Below, one piece after another: positions 6,440 through 33,636 of a DNA stretch of 36,054 nucleotides (its first letter is position 1; each line of letters starts with the position of its first letter). Below the pieces are notes generated by a model. That model saw only the letters and a list, made by a program, of their open reading frames with translations, searched no databases and was not told the DNA's origin. The position numbers and the translations under genes were made by a program. The stretch spans positions 1-36,054 of IMG/VR virus record IMGVR_UViG_3300037311_000137; one strand, 5' to 3'. The stretch is from a virus.

Positions 6440-7057
6440 ATGTACCTAAACTGTAACTTCCCCTTGTTGAAGGCCAATTTCAGGCTTGAGTTCGCATACA
6501 ACCTAGAGCGAAAAGCCGGGCTTGTACCTTGCATGATCTTCGGTGTCGCGTCCATTCCGGGGCGTGCTTTAGGGTTCCACTGCATGTTAGAGAACGGCGC
6601 TCAGTTCGCTCGTATGCCCTTACACGCGTTTAGGGTGGGGAAACATGAGGGAGACGATACAACACCCCTCCTAAGCGATCTGGAGGCTTGGGACGCGCTC
6701 TCGTACGACGTGAGCTGCACTCAGTACGCATATCTTAAAAACATGGCCTGCGAGTATTGGGTGAAAGACAAGGGTTGGGTCAAAGCTCAATATTTTGCGA
6801 CGATAGACTTTGCAGAAAACCCCGAAAGACTCACTACGTTTTCAGAAATGCCTGATGAGCATAAGTGTGCGCACGTTCTCATTAGGGAGGACGGGAATAT
6901 TGCAGCTCAACCCAATAACCGCATTCGATGGATCGACAAAGCGTTTATCACAGCCCCCTTCGTTGAAAGACCCGATTTTAAGGTCAACACACACGTCTTT
7001 GAAAGCGAATCAGCTGTGAGTGAAAACTCGGACGCTTACTTCTATCGTGAGAGTTAA
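6440..7057 (+). CDS. Hypothetical early protein (205 aa)
   Basis: Track ORF and first gene of the rightward block. No SD seen, so the start is uncertain. Confidence 0.65.
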   Translation: MYLNCNFPLLKANFRLEFAYNLERKAGLVPCMIFGVASIPGRALGFHCMLENGAQFARMPLHAFRVGKHEGDDTTPLLSDLEAWDALSYDVSCTQYAYLKNMACEYWVKDKGWVKAQYFATIDFAENPERLTTFSEMPDEHKCAHVLIREDGNIAAQPNNRIRWIDKAFITAPFVERPDFKVNTHVFESESAVSENSDAYFYRES

Positions 7058-12538: not shown

Positions 12539-12575
12539 CCCCCTGGCGGCAATGGTGCTTTCAGGGGGATTTTCT
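12539..12575 (+). terminator. Rho-independent terminator
   Basis: CCCCCTG pairs with CAGGGGG (7 bp) around a 16-nt loop, followed by ATTTTCT. Confidence 0.6.
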
Positions 12576-12577
12576 CT

Positions 12578-13057
12578 GTGTCAAAATACAAAGCCAAAAA
12601 AGTTGAAATCGATGGAAAACGCTTTGATAGCGCGTTTGAGGGAAGCGTGTATTTGCTTCTTAAATCCATCGAAGGACTTAAGATTCATTCCCGACAAGAC
12701 AAGGTCTATCTCTCCAAAGCAAACATTCTCTACAAGCCTGACTTCACGTGCCAATTTAATGACACGTTTTTCTTTGTCGAAGCCAAAGGCATGGTAACTC
12801 CTGTGTGGGGTATCAAAAAGCGGCTTTACAAAGCGTATGGGTATGACCCACTTGTGATCATCACAGCGCGTAAGGTTGAAGTGATAATCCCTGACAATTG
12901 CGCTTGCGATGAGTCTAGGCTTCCCACACAATTGCTTCATGGGCGCGTATCCTCAAAGTCTAGCATTTCTAAAGCGCGTGGATCTAAGCTTGGTGAAGCG
13001 CGTAGCAGACTCAGAACAAGTGGACGCAAGCCTTCTCTTGTCCGTCGTAGGCGTTGA
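12578..13057 (+). CDS. DUF1064-like PD-(D/E)xK nuclease (159 aa as drawn)
   Basis: MSKYKAKKVEIDGKRFDSAFEG...KPDF...FFVEAKG matches the DUF1064 pattern and the D..ExK motif. The C-terminal ~50 aa overlap the next gene and may not all be real. Confidence 0.7.
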   Translation: MSKYKAKKVEIDGKRFDSAFEGSVYLLLKSIEGLKIHSRQDKVYLSKANILYKPDFTCQFNDTFFFVEAKGMVTPVWGIKKRLYKAYGYDPLVIITARKVEVIIPDNCACDESRLPTQLLHGRVSSKSSISKARGSKLGEARSRLRTSGRKPSLVRRRR

Positions 13058-13457
13058 GAGCGCTGGCAAAGCCTTTGCGGTTAGATATGAGCCGCACTAC
13101 CGATGGACGCTTAAGCCCTACATGTTCGCAGCTCAAAACAACATCACGGAAGAGACTGAGCTTTTATGCCAAAAGACCTCATGGGGTTTGTGCCAGGTCA
13201 TGGGTGCGGTCGCTCGAGAGCATGGCCATAATGGGCTACTCACAGAGCTTGTGGTCGCTGAAACGGGACTCAAGTTTGGTGCGATTCATTTGAGACGTAG
13301 GTGTCTAAAGCACCCATCCCTTGGAGACGTATTTGCTACCTACAACGCGGGGTCTCCACGTAAGCAAGCGGGTAAGTATTTCCCCGCAAGCACTCACGCG
13401 TACGTTTCAAAAGCAATGCATCTCTATGATGTTATTACGAAATTAAAGGTCATTTGA
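12909..13457 (+). CDS. SLT-domain lytic transglycosylase (endolysin candidate, 182 aa)
   Basis: LLLSVVGVESAGKAFAVRYEP (catalytic Glu context), TSWGLCQVMG and ATYNAG. The start is uncertain (12909, 12939 or an internal GTG). Confidence 0.85.
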   Translation: MSLGFPHNCFMGAYPQSLAFLKRVDLSLVKRVADSEQVDASLLLSVVGVESAGKAFAVRYEPHYRWTLKPYMFAAQNNITEETELLCQKTSWGLCQVMGAVAREHGHNGLLTELVVAETGLKFGAIHLRRRCLKHPSLGDVFATYNAGSPRKQAGKYFPASTHAYVSKAMHLYDVITKLKVI

Positions 13458-13490
13458 ATTAAGGTCAAAGCTTTGATCCTATAAAAAAAG

Positions 13491-13574
13491 TAGCGATGAG
13501 GGGAGTCGAACCCCCAACCTTCTCGTGCCCGTCCATGGTCTAGTCGAGACGCTCTACCCTTGAGCTACACCGCT
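13491..13574 (-). tRNA. tRNA-like gene, 84 nt, canonical acceptor/D/T arms but a 19-nt anticodon loop; identity undetermined
   Basis: Folded by hand: AGCGGUG/CAUCGCU acceptor stem, GCUC-AAGGGUA-GAGC D arm, UCUCG..CGAGA anticodon stem, AGGUU variable loop and GGGGG-UUCGACU-CCCCU T arm. No CCA is encoded, and a T7 run follows. Confidence 0.6.
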
Positions 13575-13716
13575 ATCCAAGTAAACCTTTGTCCTCATCC
13601 TCAGGATCTTTACGTTTCTCTTTTCGCTTCAAAAGCGTTTCATGTAAGCGTTTCCGTACAGACCCCTCATCATAAAAATCTTTCAAGTTTCCATTCTCTG
13701 GCGTGATTTCTGTCAT
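13573..13716 (-). CDS. Hypothetical small charged protein (47 aa)
   Basis: Hand-translated as MTEITPENGNLKDFYDEGSVRKRLHETLLKRKEKRKDPEDEDKGLLG. It forms an ATGA overlap with the upstream gene, and its TAG stop overlaps the tRNA-like 5' end by 2 nt. Confidence 0.4.
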   Translation of the reverse strand: MTEITPENGNLKDFYDEGSVRKRLHETLLKRKEKRKDPEDEDKGLLG

Positions 13717-15350
13717 TGTCGCCTCATTCTTTCCATGATTAGACCCGCAGCTGGAGCGCTTCTTTCAAGCGCCTTACCGCCCGCCTCAATGAGCCCACGC
13801 CCTGGTACCTTGCCCAAAGCTTGCCCCGCTTTTTGAGCACCTCGTGCAAGCAAAGGATTTCCATACAAGCGCCCCGCCTTGTTAATGCCTCCGGCAAGTG
13901 AGCCCACAAGTGCACCCTTTAATCCACGCTCCAAAGCTTCCTCAGGGTTGTCAGCGGTCGCAGCTCCAATTGCACCCCCAACAGCACCGCCTCCTGCACC
14001 TGCAATCGTGTCGGTTAAGCTCACAAACCTGTTGCCACTCTCACGCATGATTCTCTCACGCGCATTTCTCTGAGCTTCCGACATAATCCCGTACAAGCGG
14101 TTTTGAGTCTTAAGTTCTTGCAACAACTCACCCTTACCGCCCATGGCTTTATCAAAGGCGTCCACACGCGCTTGGATTTTATCCGACAAAAAGTCTCGAA
14201 CCTTTTTGGTGTATTGCTTAGATAGCGGCTCATCTGCAATGTCTTTGTTGTATTTGATCAGATCATCAAGGCCTGACTTAAACTCTTGCATTTCTTTGAT
14301 GCCAGTGATGTCGCCGTTTGCACGCAAGTCATCGAGTAACCCCTCAACGTGTGCCAAAACCTTTTTGCCTGAAGGCTTTCCTTTAAGCTCATCCCCAAAC
14401 TTCACAAGCATCTCGTCTGCAAACTCGGTCGGGTTTAGGTTTGTTTCACGAATAAGCTTTTGTGCGTCTGGCTTAAGTTTAAAGAACGTCTTTGGATCTG
14501 AAAGCTCTTCAGAGACGCGGTTATACACCTCTCCAATGCGCTCTCCAGCTTGACGCCGAACTGCATCCGCACCCTCTGCAATGTCTTCAAACGTTGCTCC
14601 GGGCTTTACAATGCCTCGGTCCATAAGCTCACGGCCCACGTCATCAATAAAGTCATCACCTCTAGCCATGGCGCGCTTCACGTCCTTCATGACGGGACCT
14701 GTGGCCTTAAACGCTTTTTTGTAACCGTATTTCTCAAGTGTCTTTGGAATTTTAGAGAATGACTGAAGCCCTTTGCCCGCAAGCTCAGCACCCTTTGCAA
14801 ATCCTCCACCCATAGCGGCTGAGAGTAGGCCCGATTGAACACGATCTCCTAAATCACCCTCCTGCTTTTCGAGTGCACCTTGCACGCCTGAGGTGAGAGC
14901 CGCCTGTCCAACCGTTCCAAGCTTTGCGGCAGCGGGAATTGCTTTACCGGCTAAGGCCATCGTGCCTGAAGCTGCTGGAACCGCACCTGCAACCGTTCCA
15001 AGTAATCCACCTGCGCCATATGCAACAGGTGCCTCTTCGGCAAGTCTCTCCTCACGCGCTTCAAAGCCTTTAACCCTTTCGCCAAATGTTGGTTTCGGTG
15101 CGCCTTGAACCTTAAACCCTTGAGCCTCTAACTCTTGTACGTCTTTAGGTTTTGGAGTCAAAAACTCTGTTACAGCCTCTCCGGCCGCTTGCAGTTCAGG
15201 GCCGTAGCCAAACGCGGCCTTTGATCCTAAACCTTGCACAAAGCTTTCCGCTTGCTTTAAAAATCCAGGACCTTTTTCCTCCTTGGGAAGCGCAAACTTT
15301 TCCCAAGGGCCTGACCCGCCTGCTTTGTACTTTTCCCAAGGTGCTTTCAT
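13713..15350 (-). CDS. Large Gly/Ala-rich internal-virion/ejection-like protein (545 aa)
   Basis: ATG at 15350 has AAGGTG 5 nt upstream and a TAATG junction. It is the last large gene of the structural operon. The function is inferred from position and composition. Confidence 0.75.
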   Translation of the reverse strand: MKAPWEKYKAGGSGPWEKFALPKEEKGPGFLKQAESFVQGLGSKAAFGYGPELQAAGEAVTEFLTPKPKDVQELEAQGFKVQGAPKPTFGERVKGFEAREERLAEEAPVAYGAGGLLGTVAGAVPAASGTMALAGKAIPAAAKLGTVGQAALTSGVQGALEKQEGDLGDRVQSGLLSAAMGGGFAKGAELAGKGLQSFSKIPKTLEKYGYKKAFKATGPVMKDVKRAMARGDDFIDDVGRELMDRGIVKPGATFEDIAEGADAVRRQAGERIGEVYNRVSEELSDPKTFFKLKPDAQKLIRETNLNPTEFADEMLVKFGDELKGKPSGKKVLAHVEGLLDDLRANGDITGIKEMQEFKSGLDDLIKYNKDIADEPLSKQYTKKVRDFLSDKIQARVDAFDKAMGGKGELLQELKTQNRLYGIMSEAQRNARERIMRESGNRFVSLTDTIAGAGGGAVGGAIGAATADNPEEALERGLKGALVGSLAGGINKAGRLYGNPLLARGAQKAGQALGKVPGRGLIEAGGKALERSAPAAGLIMERMRRQ

Positions 15351-16294
15351 TATTTCACCTTCTTCCAATTTCGTTTGTCTGAAGGGTCTCCACCCAAGAA
15401 CTGATAACCGTCTTCCTCAACTCCAGGCTCAGGTGTTCCAGGTGCCGCAACAGCGCTTGGTGTGGATCCCTCTTGAGCCAAAAGCCCACGAAGAGAATCG
15501 CCATAACCTAAGCGGTCGGGCTCAAACCCAATCGCGGCCAAGTCTTGTGGTTGATAGCCAAGAGCCGTAAGTTTTGATTCAATAAATCGCCTTGAGGTGT
15601 CGAGCTTTTGCGCTGCTACGTCTTCTGTGTCTCCAGGGCGTGGAAGCATGGCCATGAAGCGCTTTTCCTCGTCTTTGTTGATAGCTCCACCCGACTGTAA
15701 GCGTCCGACCACTTCGGCAATCGTGGTTGCTTGAACCGTCAAAGGAGTGTCAGACACAAATGAACCCAAAAGCGGCGTGTCTCTTGTAATCCGCTCAGGA
15801 CGCATGCCGCCTTTAAAGAGGTCTTCATAATTCTTAAGCCCCTCAAGCGCTGACGCCACCATCCCAATTTGTTTTTTAACCTCTCCACCCTCTTTTCGAA
15901 GTCGGTATCTTGGGTCTTCCTCGCGCGCAAGCTTAGCGGCTTCAAGCTCCGCACGTCTCGCATACGGGTCTTTGTAGGTGGGGTCTCGTTCAATATCAAA
16001 GCCCTCATCACCCTCTTTCACAATGATGCCACGAGAGAGAAGGCCACCTTTTTGAAGCGCCTCGTTTAAAGTGCGCTGCCTTTTCGCTTCGGTGCTCTCT
16101 GCAAGCTGACCACTCTCATCCTCAATTAAGCCCGCTTGACGCATTCGGATTTGTCGGTCCTTTGCGCGCTCAGCTTCGAGTTTGTTTTGTTGGCGTGCGG
16201 CAAGTAAGTTTCCAATACCCCCAGCTATGCCGGAAGCTAGGCCCTCAGATAATTCACCCCTGTTGGCTCCATAATCCATTCCAATACGTCTCAT
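15350..16294 (-). CDS. Virion-associated hypothetical protein (314 aa)
   Basis: Track ORF with a GGGAGGGG SD upstream. Confidence 0.75.
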   Translation of the reverse strand: MRRIGMDYGANRGELSEGLASGIAGGIGNLLAARQQNKLEAERAKDRQIRMRQAGLIEDESGQLAESTEAKRQRTLNEALQKGGLLSRGIIVKEGDEGFDIERDPTYKDPYARRAELEAAKLAREEDPRYRLRKEGGEVKKQIGMVASALEGLKNYEDLFKGGMRPERITRDTPLLGSFVSDTPLTVQATTIAEVVGRLQSGGAINKDEEKRFMAMLPRPGDTEDVAAQKLDTSRRFIESKLTALGYQPQDLAAIGFEPDRLGYGDSLRGLLAQEGSTPSAVAAPGTPEPGVEEDGYQFLGGDPSDKRNWKKVK

Positions 16295-31463: not shown

Positions 31464-31800
31464 GTAGAACCTCTTCCATTGATTTACCAAGGTTTGCTTG
31501 AATTTTTTCCTTGTCGCCTTTTCTGCACACGTAAACCGCTGGGTTTCCGTAAGTAAAGAACCCACCTGGCTTAAGTCCACGCCTGTTGAAGTAGTTTACC
31601 ACGTCCTCATCGACTTCAAGCCACTGCTCAGGGTCTTCACCTGAGTTGATAGCCACTTGAGCCGCAAAAGCTCTATCTTGAAACTCACGGATCTTTTCTG
31701 CGATTCCAGTGTAATGTGCATCTCGCGTCATTTCGGGTTGTTTTACTTCCATAATTTCTTTAGGCGGTCTGCCTCTCCTTTTTGTTTCAGTCATATTCAT
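31429..31800 (-). CDS. AT-hook-containing protein (123 aa, KRRGRPPK)
   Basis: Track ORF overlapping the terL-C 3' end by 14 nt. Confidence 0.65.
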   Translation of the reverse strand: MNMTETKRRGRPPKEIMEVKQPEMTRDAHYTGIAEKIREFQDRAFAAQVAINSGEDPEQWLEVDEDVVNYFNRRGLKPGGFFTYGNPAVYVCRKGDKEKIQANLGKSMEEVLHGHSKLDSSAY

Positions 31801-32593
31801 CTAAGTTTTCAGAGTTTCGTTTTTTAATCAACTGTTCGATTGCCCACTTCTCGTAGTTTGCGTTGTGTGGTGAGTGTGGTCTTGGTGTTTGCGGCACCGC
31901 TCCAATTTCAGGATATTGTACGATGTCCTCGATTGAGGCGAGTGCATCCATTAAGTCATCGTGTGCAGCGCGTGGGAAATCATCGTATTCGGATTTTAAG
32001 TGCTCAAAGTCTTCCATCATGTAAATGCGTCCAAACTCAAAGCGTGGGACTAAGCCTTCGATGCGTGCTTCTTTGGTTTGCTTGCCTCGCTTGATGCCTA
32101 CAAGAGGTGGAAGTGTGAGTCTGCGCTTTGATTCCTCTCTCACAAAGTATTCGATTGATTCTTGGAACACTTGAGACTCGTACCCAATCACCATGGGCTT
32201 AATCTTTTGATGCACCTCAAAGATCTTTGACACAATCTCGGTTGGGGTGAGTCTATAGCGTTGAGCAACTCTTACGTACCAGTTGGTGTTAGCGTCCACA
32301 GAGACCACCACAAGGGCCGTGTAGTCGTGTTGCTCTTCTTGACCTATGGCTGGGTCCAAGAACGCAAACGTGTTTGTGGGCATTCCTGGAGGCGGTCCGG
32401 GGGATATTCTCCACCATTCGGGCTTAAACTTTCGAAGCTCATCTGGAATGACTCGGTTTAGGTACTGGTTTGTAAACTTGTAAGACCCAAGCTCGCGCTT
32501 TAACTCATCAAGCTTTTCTTTTGAAAGCTTCTGAGGGAATAGAAGCGACCCATCAGGGCGTATGGCTTGCTCGTAAACAACGTCCCACTTCAT
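31787..32593 (-). CDS. terL: Terminase large subunit, C-terminal part (lid region plus RNaseH-like nuclease domain, 268 aa)
   Basis: FTNQYLNRVIP, FAFLDPA (nuclease Asp) and AAHDDLMDALA. The ATG directly abuts the TAA of the inserted gene. Confidence 0.88.
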   Translation of the reverse strand: MKWDVVYEQAIRPDGSLLFPQKLSKEKLDELKRELGSYKFTNQYLNRVIPDELRKFKPEWWRISPGPPPGMPTNTFAFLDPAIGQEEQHDYTALVVVSVDANTNWYVRVAQRYRLTPTEIVSKIFEVHQKIKPMVIGYESQVFQESIEYFVREESKRRLTLPPLVGIKRGKQTKEARIEGLVPRFEFGRIYMMEDFEHLKSEYDDFPRAAHDDLMDALASIEDIVQYPEIGAVPQTPRPHSPHNANYEKWAIEQLIKKRNSENLDEYD

Positions 32594-32917
32594 TTAAGAA
32601 GACTTAAGCGACATGACTTGTGCGACTACGGTTGCGCCAATTCCCGCAATGTAGAACGGCGCAGGGCCTAAGAAGTCAAGGCGTTCAGCGGTTTTGACGA
32701 TGTAGAACTGGTTTGCAGTGAAAGCAGCCGCAAGTTGTGCAGCAGATAGGGTCTGACCCGCTGGAACCCCGATAATGATTAAGGTGCCACCTGATACGCG
32801 AGCCACAACTCTGTCAGCAACAAAGGCGCTTGAGCCTATCAGTTGTGCGTTTGCAGCCCCTGCCACAAGCGTGTATTGTTGTGCAGTGATCGAACCCGTG
32901 CGTAGTCCTTCAATCAT
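32594..32917 (-). CDS. Ala/Gly-rich 107-aa protein nested between the two terL halves
   Basis: Open frame fills the whole insert, with an ATGA overlap to terL-N and a TAA|ATG abutment to terL-C. Confidence 0.65.
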   Translation of the reverse strand: MIEGLRTGSITAQQYTLVAGAANAQLIGSSAFVADRVVARVSGGTLIIIGVPAGQTLSAAQLAAAFTANQFYIVKTAERLDFLGPAPFYIAGIGATVVAQVMSLKSS

Positions 32918-33636
32918 TTGAGTCCCCCTTCAGTAAGCCCTAAAGAAATCTTATCACACTCATCGATTTCATTTGCAATGATGTGCCCAATTACGTCATC
33001 AATAGCGTATCTAGTTCCACACACAACGTAAATATCCGACCCATCTAGTATGGCCTTATTGTACTGGTAATGGTCAACTACTTTGGTTCTGCCCTCTTTT
33101 GAGCGTGAATTGTTGTTTGAATTGAGGTCATCCGAAATGATGACGTCGTAATGTTGACCAACTTTCACGGTGTTTACTCCACCTGCCGTGATGGATGCTT
33201 CCTTCCGTGGTGCTGATCTAAGAGAGAGTGTAATCTCTCCTTCCCCCCAAGTCGAGCCTTTTAAGTTTGGAAAGAACATTTGCATGATGGGGGATTCTGC
33301 GTGTGCTTTGATCTCTCGAATGAAGTTCTTTGAGTTAGAGTAAATTTCCGAGTCAATGAGTATGGCTTCGTTTGGGTTTTTGAATAGAAGCCTCCATAGA
33401 GGGTATGCAACACAGACAAGTGAGCTTTTGAATGTTCCACGTGGAAGCACGATGAGCTTTCGTTTGGTGTTACTTTCAAGTGCTTTCGTGATTTTGAGAT
33501 GAGTGCTTGGTTGTAGGTCTTTGTAGCCTAGAGCTTGTTTGGCGAATGTGAAGAGGGATCTAGACCAACGGTCACGAATAAGCTCTTGTAGAGCGTCTGT
33601 TTGCTCTTCAATTGTGAAGTGTTCCAGTCCGGTCAC
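32914..33636 (-). CDS. terL: Terminase large subunit, N-terminal ATPase part (240 aa)
   Basis: Walker A-like LPRGTFKSS, Walker B YDVIISDD and coupling motif CGTRY. Confidence 0.88.
   Translation of the reverse strand: MTGLEHFTIEEQTDALQELIRDRWSRSLFTFAKQALGYKDLQPSTHLKITKALESNTKRKLIVLPRGTFKSSLVCVAYPLWRLLFKNPNEAILIDSEIYSNSKNFIREIKAHAESPIMQMFFPNLKGSTWGEGEITLSLRSAPRKEASITAGGVNTVKVGQHYDVIISDDLNSNNNSRSKEGRTKVVDHYQYNKAILDGSDIYVVCGTRYAIDDVIGHIIANEIDECDKISLGLTEGGLK

Follow-up and report, generated by a model that had tools for sequence, protein, structure and literature searches.

The complete 36,054-bp IMG/VR virus genome with direct terminal repeats, which constitutes the window analysed here in its full length, encodes a single tRNA-shaped gene (13491–13574, minus strand) whose RNA almost certainly cannot read codons as an ordinary decoder. 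With a little less than even confidence, it can tentatively be regarded as a recently acquired, tRNA-derived gene that makes a non-decoding, tRNA-shaped RNA from the tail of the late transcript. The body of the encoded RNA is that of an intact class-I tRNA, while its anticodon loop is enlarged to 19 nt and offers no usable register.

The gene is 84 nt long, does not encode the CCA end and was delimited using ARAGORN, the Rfam tRNA family (RF00005) and folding. RF00005 matched positions 13491–13574 of the minus strand from end to end (model positions 1–71) with 53.2 bits (E 7.4e-9; family cut-off 29 bits), and its alignment places 19 nt at the anticodon loop where the model expects seven. ARAGORN, the use of which had been proposed in the preliminary description, recovered one gene at the locus (13490–13574, minus strand), which it labelled 'tRNA-???' with the anticodon '(agac)'; this is the only tRNA in the genome. 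By direct reading, the RNA comprises a 7-bp acceptor stem with one G-U pair (13568–13574 with 13492–13498), a 4-bp D stem with the loop AAGGGUA, an anticodon stem of five Watson-Crick pairs (UCUCG, 13545–13549, with CGAGA, 13521–13525), a 5-nt variable loop (AGGUU), a 5-bp T stem with the loop UUCGACU and a discriminator A (A73; 13491), all on the minus strand. All 21 of the 21 stem pairs in the body are intact, and the bases involved in tertiary contacts are present without exception (U8, A14, A15-U48, G18G19, A21, G26, G46, U54U55C56, A58 and G53-C61). The 7/4/5/5-bp cloverleaf, scoring above the family cut-off, and these tertiary bases place the gene within RF00005. When the cloverleaf is enforced the folding energy is −26.3 kcal/mol, as compared to −26.6 kcal/mol for the unconstrained minimum (a gap of 0.3). 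The canonical acceptor, D and T arms, class-I body and 19-nt loop that had been described beforehand are thus upheld by ARAGORN, Rfam and direct reading alike. No other RNA family, introns included, was matched at E values up to 10 in Rfam, and a tmRNA identity was rejected as ARAGORN reports none and the sole match (16 bits) is sub-threshold.

The gene lacks a 7-nt anticodon loop with U33 and a purine at position 37. Its loop, ACUAGACCAUGGACGGGCA (13526–13544, minus strand), is 19 nt long and largely unpaired, and direct reading confirmed the earlier statement that no U33-NNN-R37 register occurs in it. Two palindromes, CUAG and CCAUGG, occur in the loop, as do two GAC triplets, with a third GAC spanning the stem-loop junction. 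Within its interior, folding yields only a 2-bp C-G contact of appreciable probability, which is weak, and neither a recognisable motif nor a stable fold was found in the 19 nt. It departs from the canonical state in at least two ways, namely in twelve extra nucleotides and in the lack of a U33 under any single excision. That a flawless body carries a loop with two or more independent faults speaks against one fresh insertion into a working tRNA, which should have left a recognisable loop, and against long neutral decay, which should have affected the stems too. The 19-nt loop is unique in the phage genome even when three mismatches are allowed. An antisense RNA was rejected because a search allowing up to three mismatches located no complement of the loop in the phage genome and because the GACCAUGGAC core of the loop is not enriched. 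Similarly, a link to the guide region of the phage TnpB was discarded, as the longest shared word is at most 8 nt.

The virus genome encodes a P22-like portal, an HK97-type capsid protein, a scaffold, a split large terminase, an SU10-type adaptor, Erf, a DnaB-like helicase, TnpB, a GT2-TPR-GT1 glycosyltransferase and an SLT endolysin. The large terminase (31787–33636, minus strand) is distributed over two ORFs (phrog_38 positions 271–465 and 468–707), with a 107-aa ORF between them, while a 205-aa protein (6440–7057, plus strand) matches phrog_3704 'ferredoxin' (E 4.6e-52) and has no Pfam family match. The nearest cultured phages, at 22–29 % identity, infect Actinobacteria and Paenibacillus. 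On the basis of the SLT endolysin, these nearest cultured phages and a lipobox protein in a relative, the host is bacterial. The lipobox protein (LIAGC), a short product encoded after the small ORF in the relative L140 (5853–5969), is outer-spanin-like and hints that this phage group has a diderm host.

The tRNA-shaped gene follows the last gene of the late block, a 47-aa ORF (13573–13716, minus strand) whose TAG stop shares its AG with tRNA positions 1–2 and whose ATG start codon overlaps the TGA of a 551-aa gene (ATGA coupling). The latter (13713–15368, minus strand) encodes a virion-block protein without family assignment, which served as a query for finding relatives. In the relatives L140, L005, L141 and L007, the 551-aa homologue is likewise followed by a small ORF that is similar in length and sequence (G.LK..Y ... 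KRR.K), and on this conservation the 47-aa ORF is a real gene. The preliminary description had placed a 2-nt overlap between the tRNA and the stop of the last ORF; the overlap is present, and the ORF concerned is this 47-aa one and not the 551-aa gene, which ends at 13713. The operon of about 28 kb that had been drawn above the gene could not be reproduced, as the unbroken minus-strand block covers about 22 kb (35777 to 13573) and a length of about 28 kb is reached only if the block is continued across the terminal repeat so as to take in the replication genes. The T7 run reported to follow the gene is present as C plus T7 (13483–13490, minus strand) directly past the discriminator A73, where it forms a candidate transcription stop and RNase Z trailer. 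At this junction, the minus strand showed no further terminator-like site in a consensus scan, and a promoter scan found no promoter-like site upstream of the tRNA-shaped gene on the minus strand. As no such site precedes the gene on its own strand, its RNA would be made as the tail of the late transcript.

On the opposite side, an SLT-domain endolysin (12909–13457, plus strand; Pfam SLT 24.6 bits, above the cut-off) converges on the tRNA-shaped gene, which occupies 84 of the approximately 115 nt separating the endolysin from the late block. The repeat search located an imperfect palindrome, GGATCAAAGCTTTGACC, around a HindIII site between the T7 tract and the endolysin stop (13463–13479), which is not followed by a T run on either strand. 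In the relative L141, according to tblastn and ORF maps, the 551-aa gene, the small ORF and the SLT endolysin all lie on the same strand, and in L140 and L005 the genes past the small ORF likewise stay on that strand. Relative to L141 (5677–6147), the lysis cassette of the window (12552–13457, plus strand), comprising the endolysin and the preceding ORFs, including one for a DUF1064 protein, is inverted; no inverted repeats flanking the inverted segment were detected in the repeat search. Since the strand of the endolysin cassette is flipped with respect to the relatives, the tRNA-shaped gene is, judged from gene order, situated at the inversion junction of the lysis cassette. Furthermore, a stop signal would be needed exactly at the tRNA, given that the endolysin is convergent here, whereas the lysis genes of the relatives run on the same strand.

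Fifteen related loci were available for comparison, identified by the capsid protein (53 % identity; L002–L004), the glycosyltransferase (40–44 %; L005–L007, including a complete 40.8-kb genome) and the 551-aa protein (25–32 %; L140–L148). The conservation of the loop, which the preliminary description had proposed to follow among relatives, found no counterpart there, as none of the fifteen loci, the complete 40.8-kb genome included, carries any tRNA. One close relative, P0002, which is 86 % identical to the neighbouring 551-aa protein, is encoded on a 4.8-kb Logan contig. Exact-pattern scans of IMG/VR for the two tRNA halves gave no match, while a pattern of the D and T arms run against 185,579 GTDB genomes retrieved 92 tRNAs, which are all ordinary, are spread over many isotypes and include none with an enlarged loop. 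The anticodon-stem pattern retrieved ordinary Arg, Ala, Val and His tRNAs and five chance non-tRNA matches from the JGI metagenomes and no homologue, and blastn against the cultured phages in INPHARED returned generic tRNA similarity only. By these comparisons, the tRNA-shaped gene is a lineage-specific orphan among the loci and databases searched. Two GTDB contigs carry elements that may be phage-derived or att remnants: L091 encodes a class-I cloverleaf with the anticodon UAG in the loop UUUAGGA, and L077 (Marimonas arenosa) encodes tRNA-like D, anticodon (loop CUUAGAA) and T arms without acceptor pairing.

Cloverleaf genes with enlarged anticodon loops do occur elsewhere in IMG/VR. A scan with a pattern that combined the commonest D arm and T loop and required five or more extra nucleotides between them matched more than 119 contigs (L149–L267 among those listed). 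Complete cloverleafs, defined by at least six of seven acceptor pairs, at least four of five anticodon stem pairs, an intact T stem and a variable loop of 4–6 nt, with anticodon loops of 13–31 nt were present in 72 of the 119 listed matches, and thus number at least 72. Among these 72 listed genes, 27 are tRNA-Tyr(GUA) genes with an insert after position 37, which are of the eukaryote or giant-virus type and several of which are found on GVMAG contigs, while fourteen show a different canonical register at one of the loop ends and thirty-one have no canonical register. The acceptor, anticodon and T stems lay outside the search pattern and are nonetheless intact in these genes, some of which group into families. 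For example, the enlarged-loop genes of L168 and L176 are identical, while a loop hairpin is retained through compensatory changes between L241 (10265–10358) and L245 (3847–3942), with GUCCGG/CCGGAU in one and GGAGGG/CCCUCU in the other. In L171 (GNRA) and L231 (UUCG) the anticodon arm is extended into a capped helix without an anticodon, and L184 presents a normal Val(GAC) loop on a stem lengthened to about 9 bp. Several of the listed genes are placed at most 10 nt past an upstream ORF on the same strand, as is the gene at 13491–13574, and none of the 72 listed cloverleafs is related to it. The gene of the window belongs to a poorly described and apparently widespread set of viral enlarged-loop cloverleaf genes.

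A selected, non-decoding RNA is the reading that best accommodates the contrast between body and loop, the economy of phage genomes and the existence of conserved families elsewhere. The alternatives named in the preliminary description (a mimic or decoy, a processing element, a decaying tRNA) are narrowed by these data, though not separated from one another. Phage genomes are tightly packed and useless DNA is shed quickly. The RNA would form the 3' end of the late transcript. There, the acceptor stem and the U7 tract may together halt transcription and give the message a structured terminus that resists exonucleases; without such a stop, late transcription would be expected to continue antisense into the inverted lysis cassette. 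RNase P and RNase Z could then free an 84-nt tRNA look-alike, whose action would depend on its tRNA shape and not on decoding. As to what it may act upon, it could occupy a host factor, for instance a tRNA-cutting defence nuclease or a modifying enzyme, that holds tRNAs by the body and the anticodon arm, a guess by analogy that is fairly unlikely to hold in this specific form. We know of no phage tRNA for which a decoy or inhibitor action has been shown. A decoy role against defence nucleases is suggested only by analogy with three reports of phage tRNAs that counter tRNA-cutting defences (PMC11464382, PMC11555353, PMC12445682). Several observations count against a non-decoding RNA. It is represented by a single sequence, so that neither conservation nor covariation is demonstrable; all fifteen related loci lack a tRNA; the loop has no stable fold, motif or complement in the phage; and a branched tRNA would be unusual as a terminator hairpin. 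In addition, the 47-aa gene would lose its UAG stop if RNase P cut at the predicted 5' end, which argues against efficient release and favours a role in cis only.

The strongest competing explanation, although on balance rather unlikely, is that the gene is a neutral relic, in which a host or phage tRNA was caught at the breakpoint of the lysis-cassette inversion, its loop was wrecked by a complex indel and the remainder is passively transcribed, with only the T7 tract being of consequence. Its location at a rearrangement junction, the lack of a tRNA in any of the fifteen related loci and its orphan status in the GTDB, JGI, IMG/VR and INPHARED searches are all consistent with such an origin, as are a loop devoid of structure, motif or target and a codon usage that shows no demand for it. 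However, a relic would be expected to show some decay of the body, where all stem pairs and tertiary bases persist, and the loop cannot be derived from a U33 loop by one simple insertion. The rapid loss of useless DNA from phages and the retention of comparable enlarged-loop genes in families elsewhere further weigh against it.

It is also conceivable, but improbable, that the element functions purely in cis, with the tRNA fold and U7 tract acting on the late mRNA as a terminator, an insulator or a stabiliser of its 3' end, and with no role for any released RNA. The element is the sole terminator-like feature at the convergent junction, and the stop-codon overlap speaks against efficient RNase P cutting. 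Termination does not, however, require the full set of tRNA tertiary bases that the gene has kept.

A processed decoder, in which 12 nt are removed or bypassed to leave either a class-I tRNA with the anticodon UAG and C33 or a Val-like tRNA reading with a GAC triplet, is very unlikely. The preliminary description had proposed a 12-nt insert at position 37/38 of a tRNA-Leu(UAG). The arithmetic of this proposal works, in that excision at 37/38 yields ACUAGAA, but U33, the bulge-helix-bulge motif, the host, the body class and codon use all stand against it. Every single contiguous 12-nt excision that keeps the 5-bp stem leaves C33, in keeping with the absence of a U33 register from the loop, and a purine at position 37 is obtained solely with ACUAGAA, or with ACUAGAC when the excision is shifted by one base. 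An enumeration of all 4-bp helices with two 3-nt bulges found no bulge-helix-bulge that keeps the anticodon stem and a normal loop, and the pairing test for a 37/38 intron (positions 32–35 against intron positions −3 to −6) gave one of four pairs. No splicing endonuclease or RNA ligase gene was detected among the annotated phage proteins, and none of the former is expected from the host, given that it is bacterial. To our knowledge, bacteria have no tRNA splicing endonuclease and short tRNA introns do not occur in them. An archaeal or eukaryal spliced tRNA was rejected for want of a bulge-helix-bulge and because the virus is of bacterial type, and a group I intron because the insert is 12 nt long and matches no intron family in Rfam.

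What can be said for a processed decoder, apart from the excision product itself, is that tRNA-Tyr(GUA) genes with a layout of 7 + 12 nt are present in IMG/VR as well (for example in L152), and that among tRNAs with the same anticodon stem the body is nearest to tRNA-Val (L135, L116), a likeness inflated by a search pattern that fixed 22 nt. Given this bias in the comparison, an origin from tRNA-Val can be offered as a weak lead. Codon supply by a tRNA-Leu(UAG) was likewise rejected, as the body is of class I and not class II, which is the class of bacterial tRNA-Leu, and CUA and CUG are minor codons, accounting for 85/863 and 43/863 of the leucine codons in the phage, respectively. The hint of an amber-reading RNA that had been taken from the CUA in the loop fails, since this CUA follows an A and not a U and there are no in-frame TAGs. 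An amber suppressor or recoding was rejected as TAG is an ordinary stop (used by 5 of 41 genes) and translation with code 11 leaves the long ORFs unbroken.

Least credible of all is an attachment site or DNA-level recombination site built on a tRNA gene, since, although the element lies at a rearrangement junction and tRNA genes are commonly targeted for integration, apart from Erf and TnpB no integrase or recombinase gene was detected in the phage genome, the tRNA-shaped gene is of full length whereas attP sites hold only the 3' portion of a tRNA, no inverted repeats were detected around it and no matching host tRNA was found in the GTDB and JGI searches.

The usual explanation for phage tRNAs is codon supply or, in more recent work, evasion of tRNA-cutting defences, and a foldable, processable tRNA without a usable anticodon fits neither. 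If the gene is functional, the tRNA shape would itself be what is put to use, whether in a decoy, in an inhibitor or in a module at the transcript end, while as a relic it would provide a clean case of a tRNA captured where a phage genome was rearranged. Judging from the IMG/VR scan, enlarged-loop genes seem to be present in many uncultivated viruses, where standard annotation reports them as 'tRNA-???' or mislabels them. It would be a long shot to suppose that the gene is part of a broad, undescribed class of phage mimics with perfect tRNA bodies and enlarged, non-decoding anticodon loops, which would bind and disable the nucleases of host tRNA-directed immunity, or that its 12-nt insert is removed by a splicing route new to bacteria.

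Among known systems, the gene at 13491–13574 most plainly recalls the canonical class-I tRNAs of bacteria and phages (RF00005), with which it shares the four stems, the 5-nt variable loop, UUCGACU, the GG of the D loop and the tertiary bases, and it resembles many phage tRNAs in its tight placement after an ORF. It differs from them in having a loop of 19 nt with no assignable anticodon in place of a 7-nt loop with U33, in being the sole tRNA of its genome and in having kin without a tRNA. The intron-bearing tRNAs of eukaryotes, giant viruses and archaea, in which the insert is at 37/38 (for example the IMG/VR tRNA-Tyr(GUA) genes with 19–31-nt loops, such as that of L152), similarly combine seven nucleotides and a short insert with an intact body. 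Here, in contrast, neither a bulge-helix-bulge nor anticodon-intron pairing is present and C33 would stay, and the carrier is a tailed phage with a peptidoglycan-cutting endolysin, whose host should lack the splicing enzymes. The tRNAs with group I introns (tRNA-Leu UAA and others) share an interruption in the anticodon loop. These introns comprise about 200 nt or more, adopt a P1–P9 fold and are self-splicing, whereas the insert here is 12 nt long and has no Rfam intron match.

The species 1 and 2 stable RNAs of phage T4 (rnaC and rnaD) are phage-encoded, tRNA-shaped and non-decoding, and are presumably processed by tRNA enzymes; they are 120–140 nt long, lie inside a tRNA cluster and depart from the cloverleaf. 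Their likeness to the gene described here is functional only; the latter has a near-perfect cloverleaf and is solitary at the end of an operon. Finally, the tRNA-Lys of phage T5 is reported to neutralise PARIS (PMC11464382) and a phage tRNA-Tyr to act against a retron effector (PMC11555353). Such anti-defence tRNAs are, like the gene at 13491–13574, small phage-borne genes whose value would lie in the sequence of the anticodon loop rather than in codon supply. They do, however, decode with 7-nt loops and stand in for host tRNAs that have been cleaved, whereas the RNA encoded at 13491–13574 could act only as a decoy or inhibitor.
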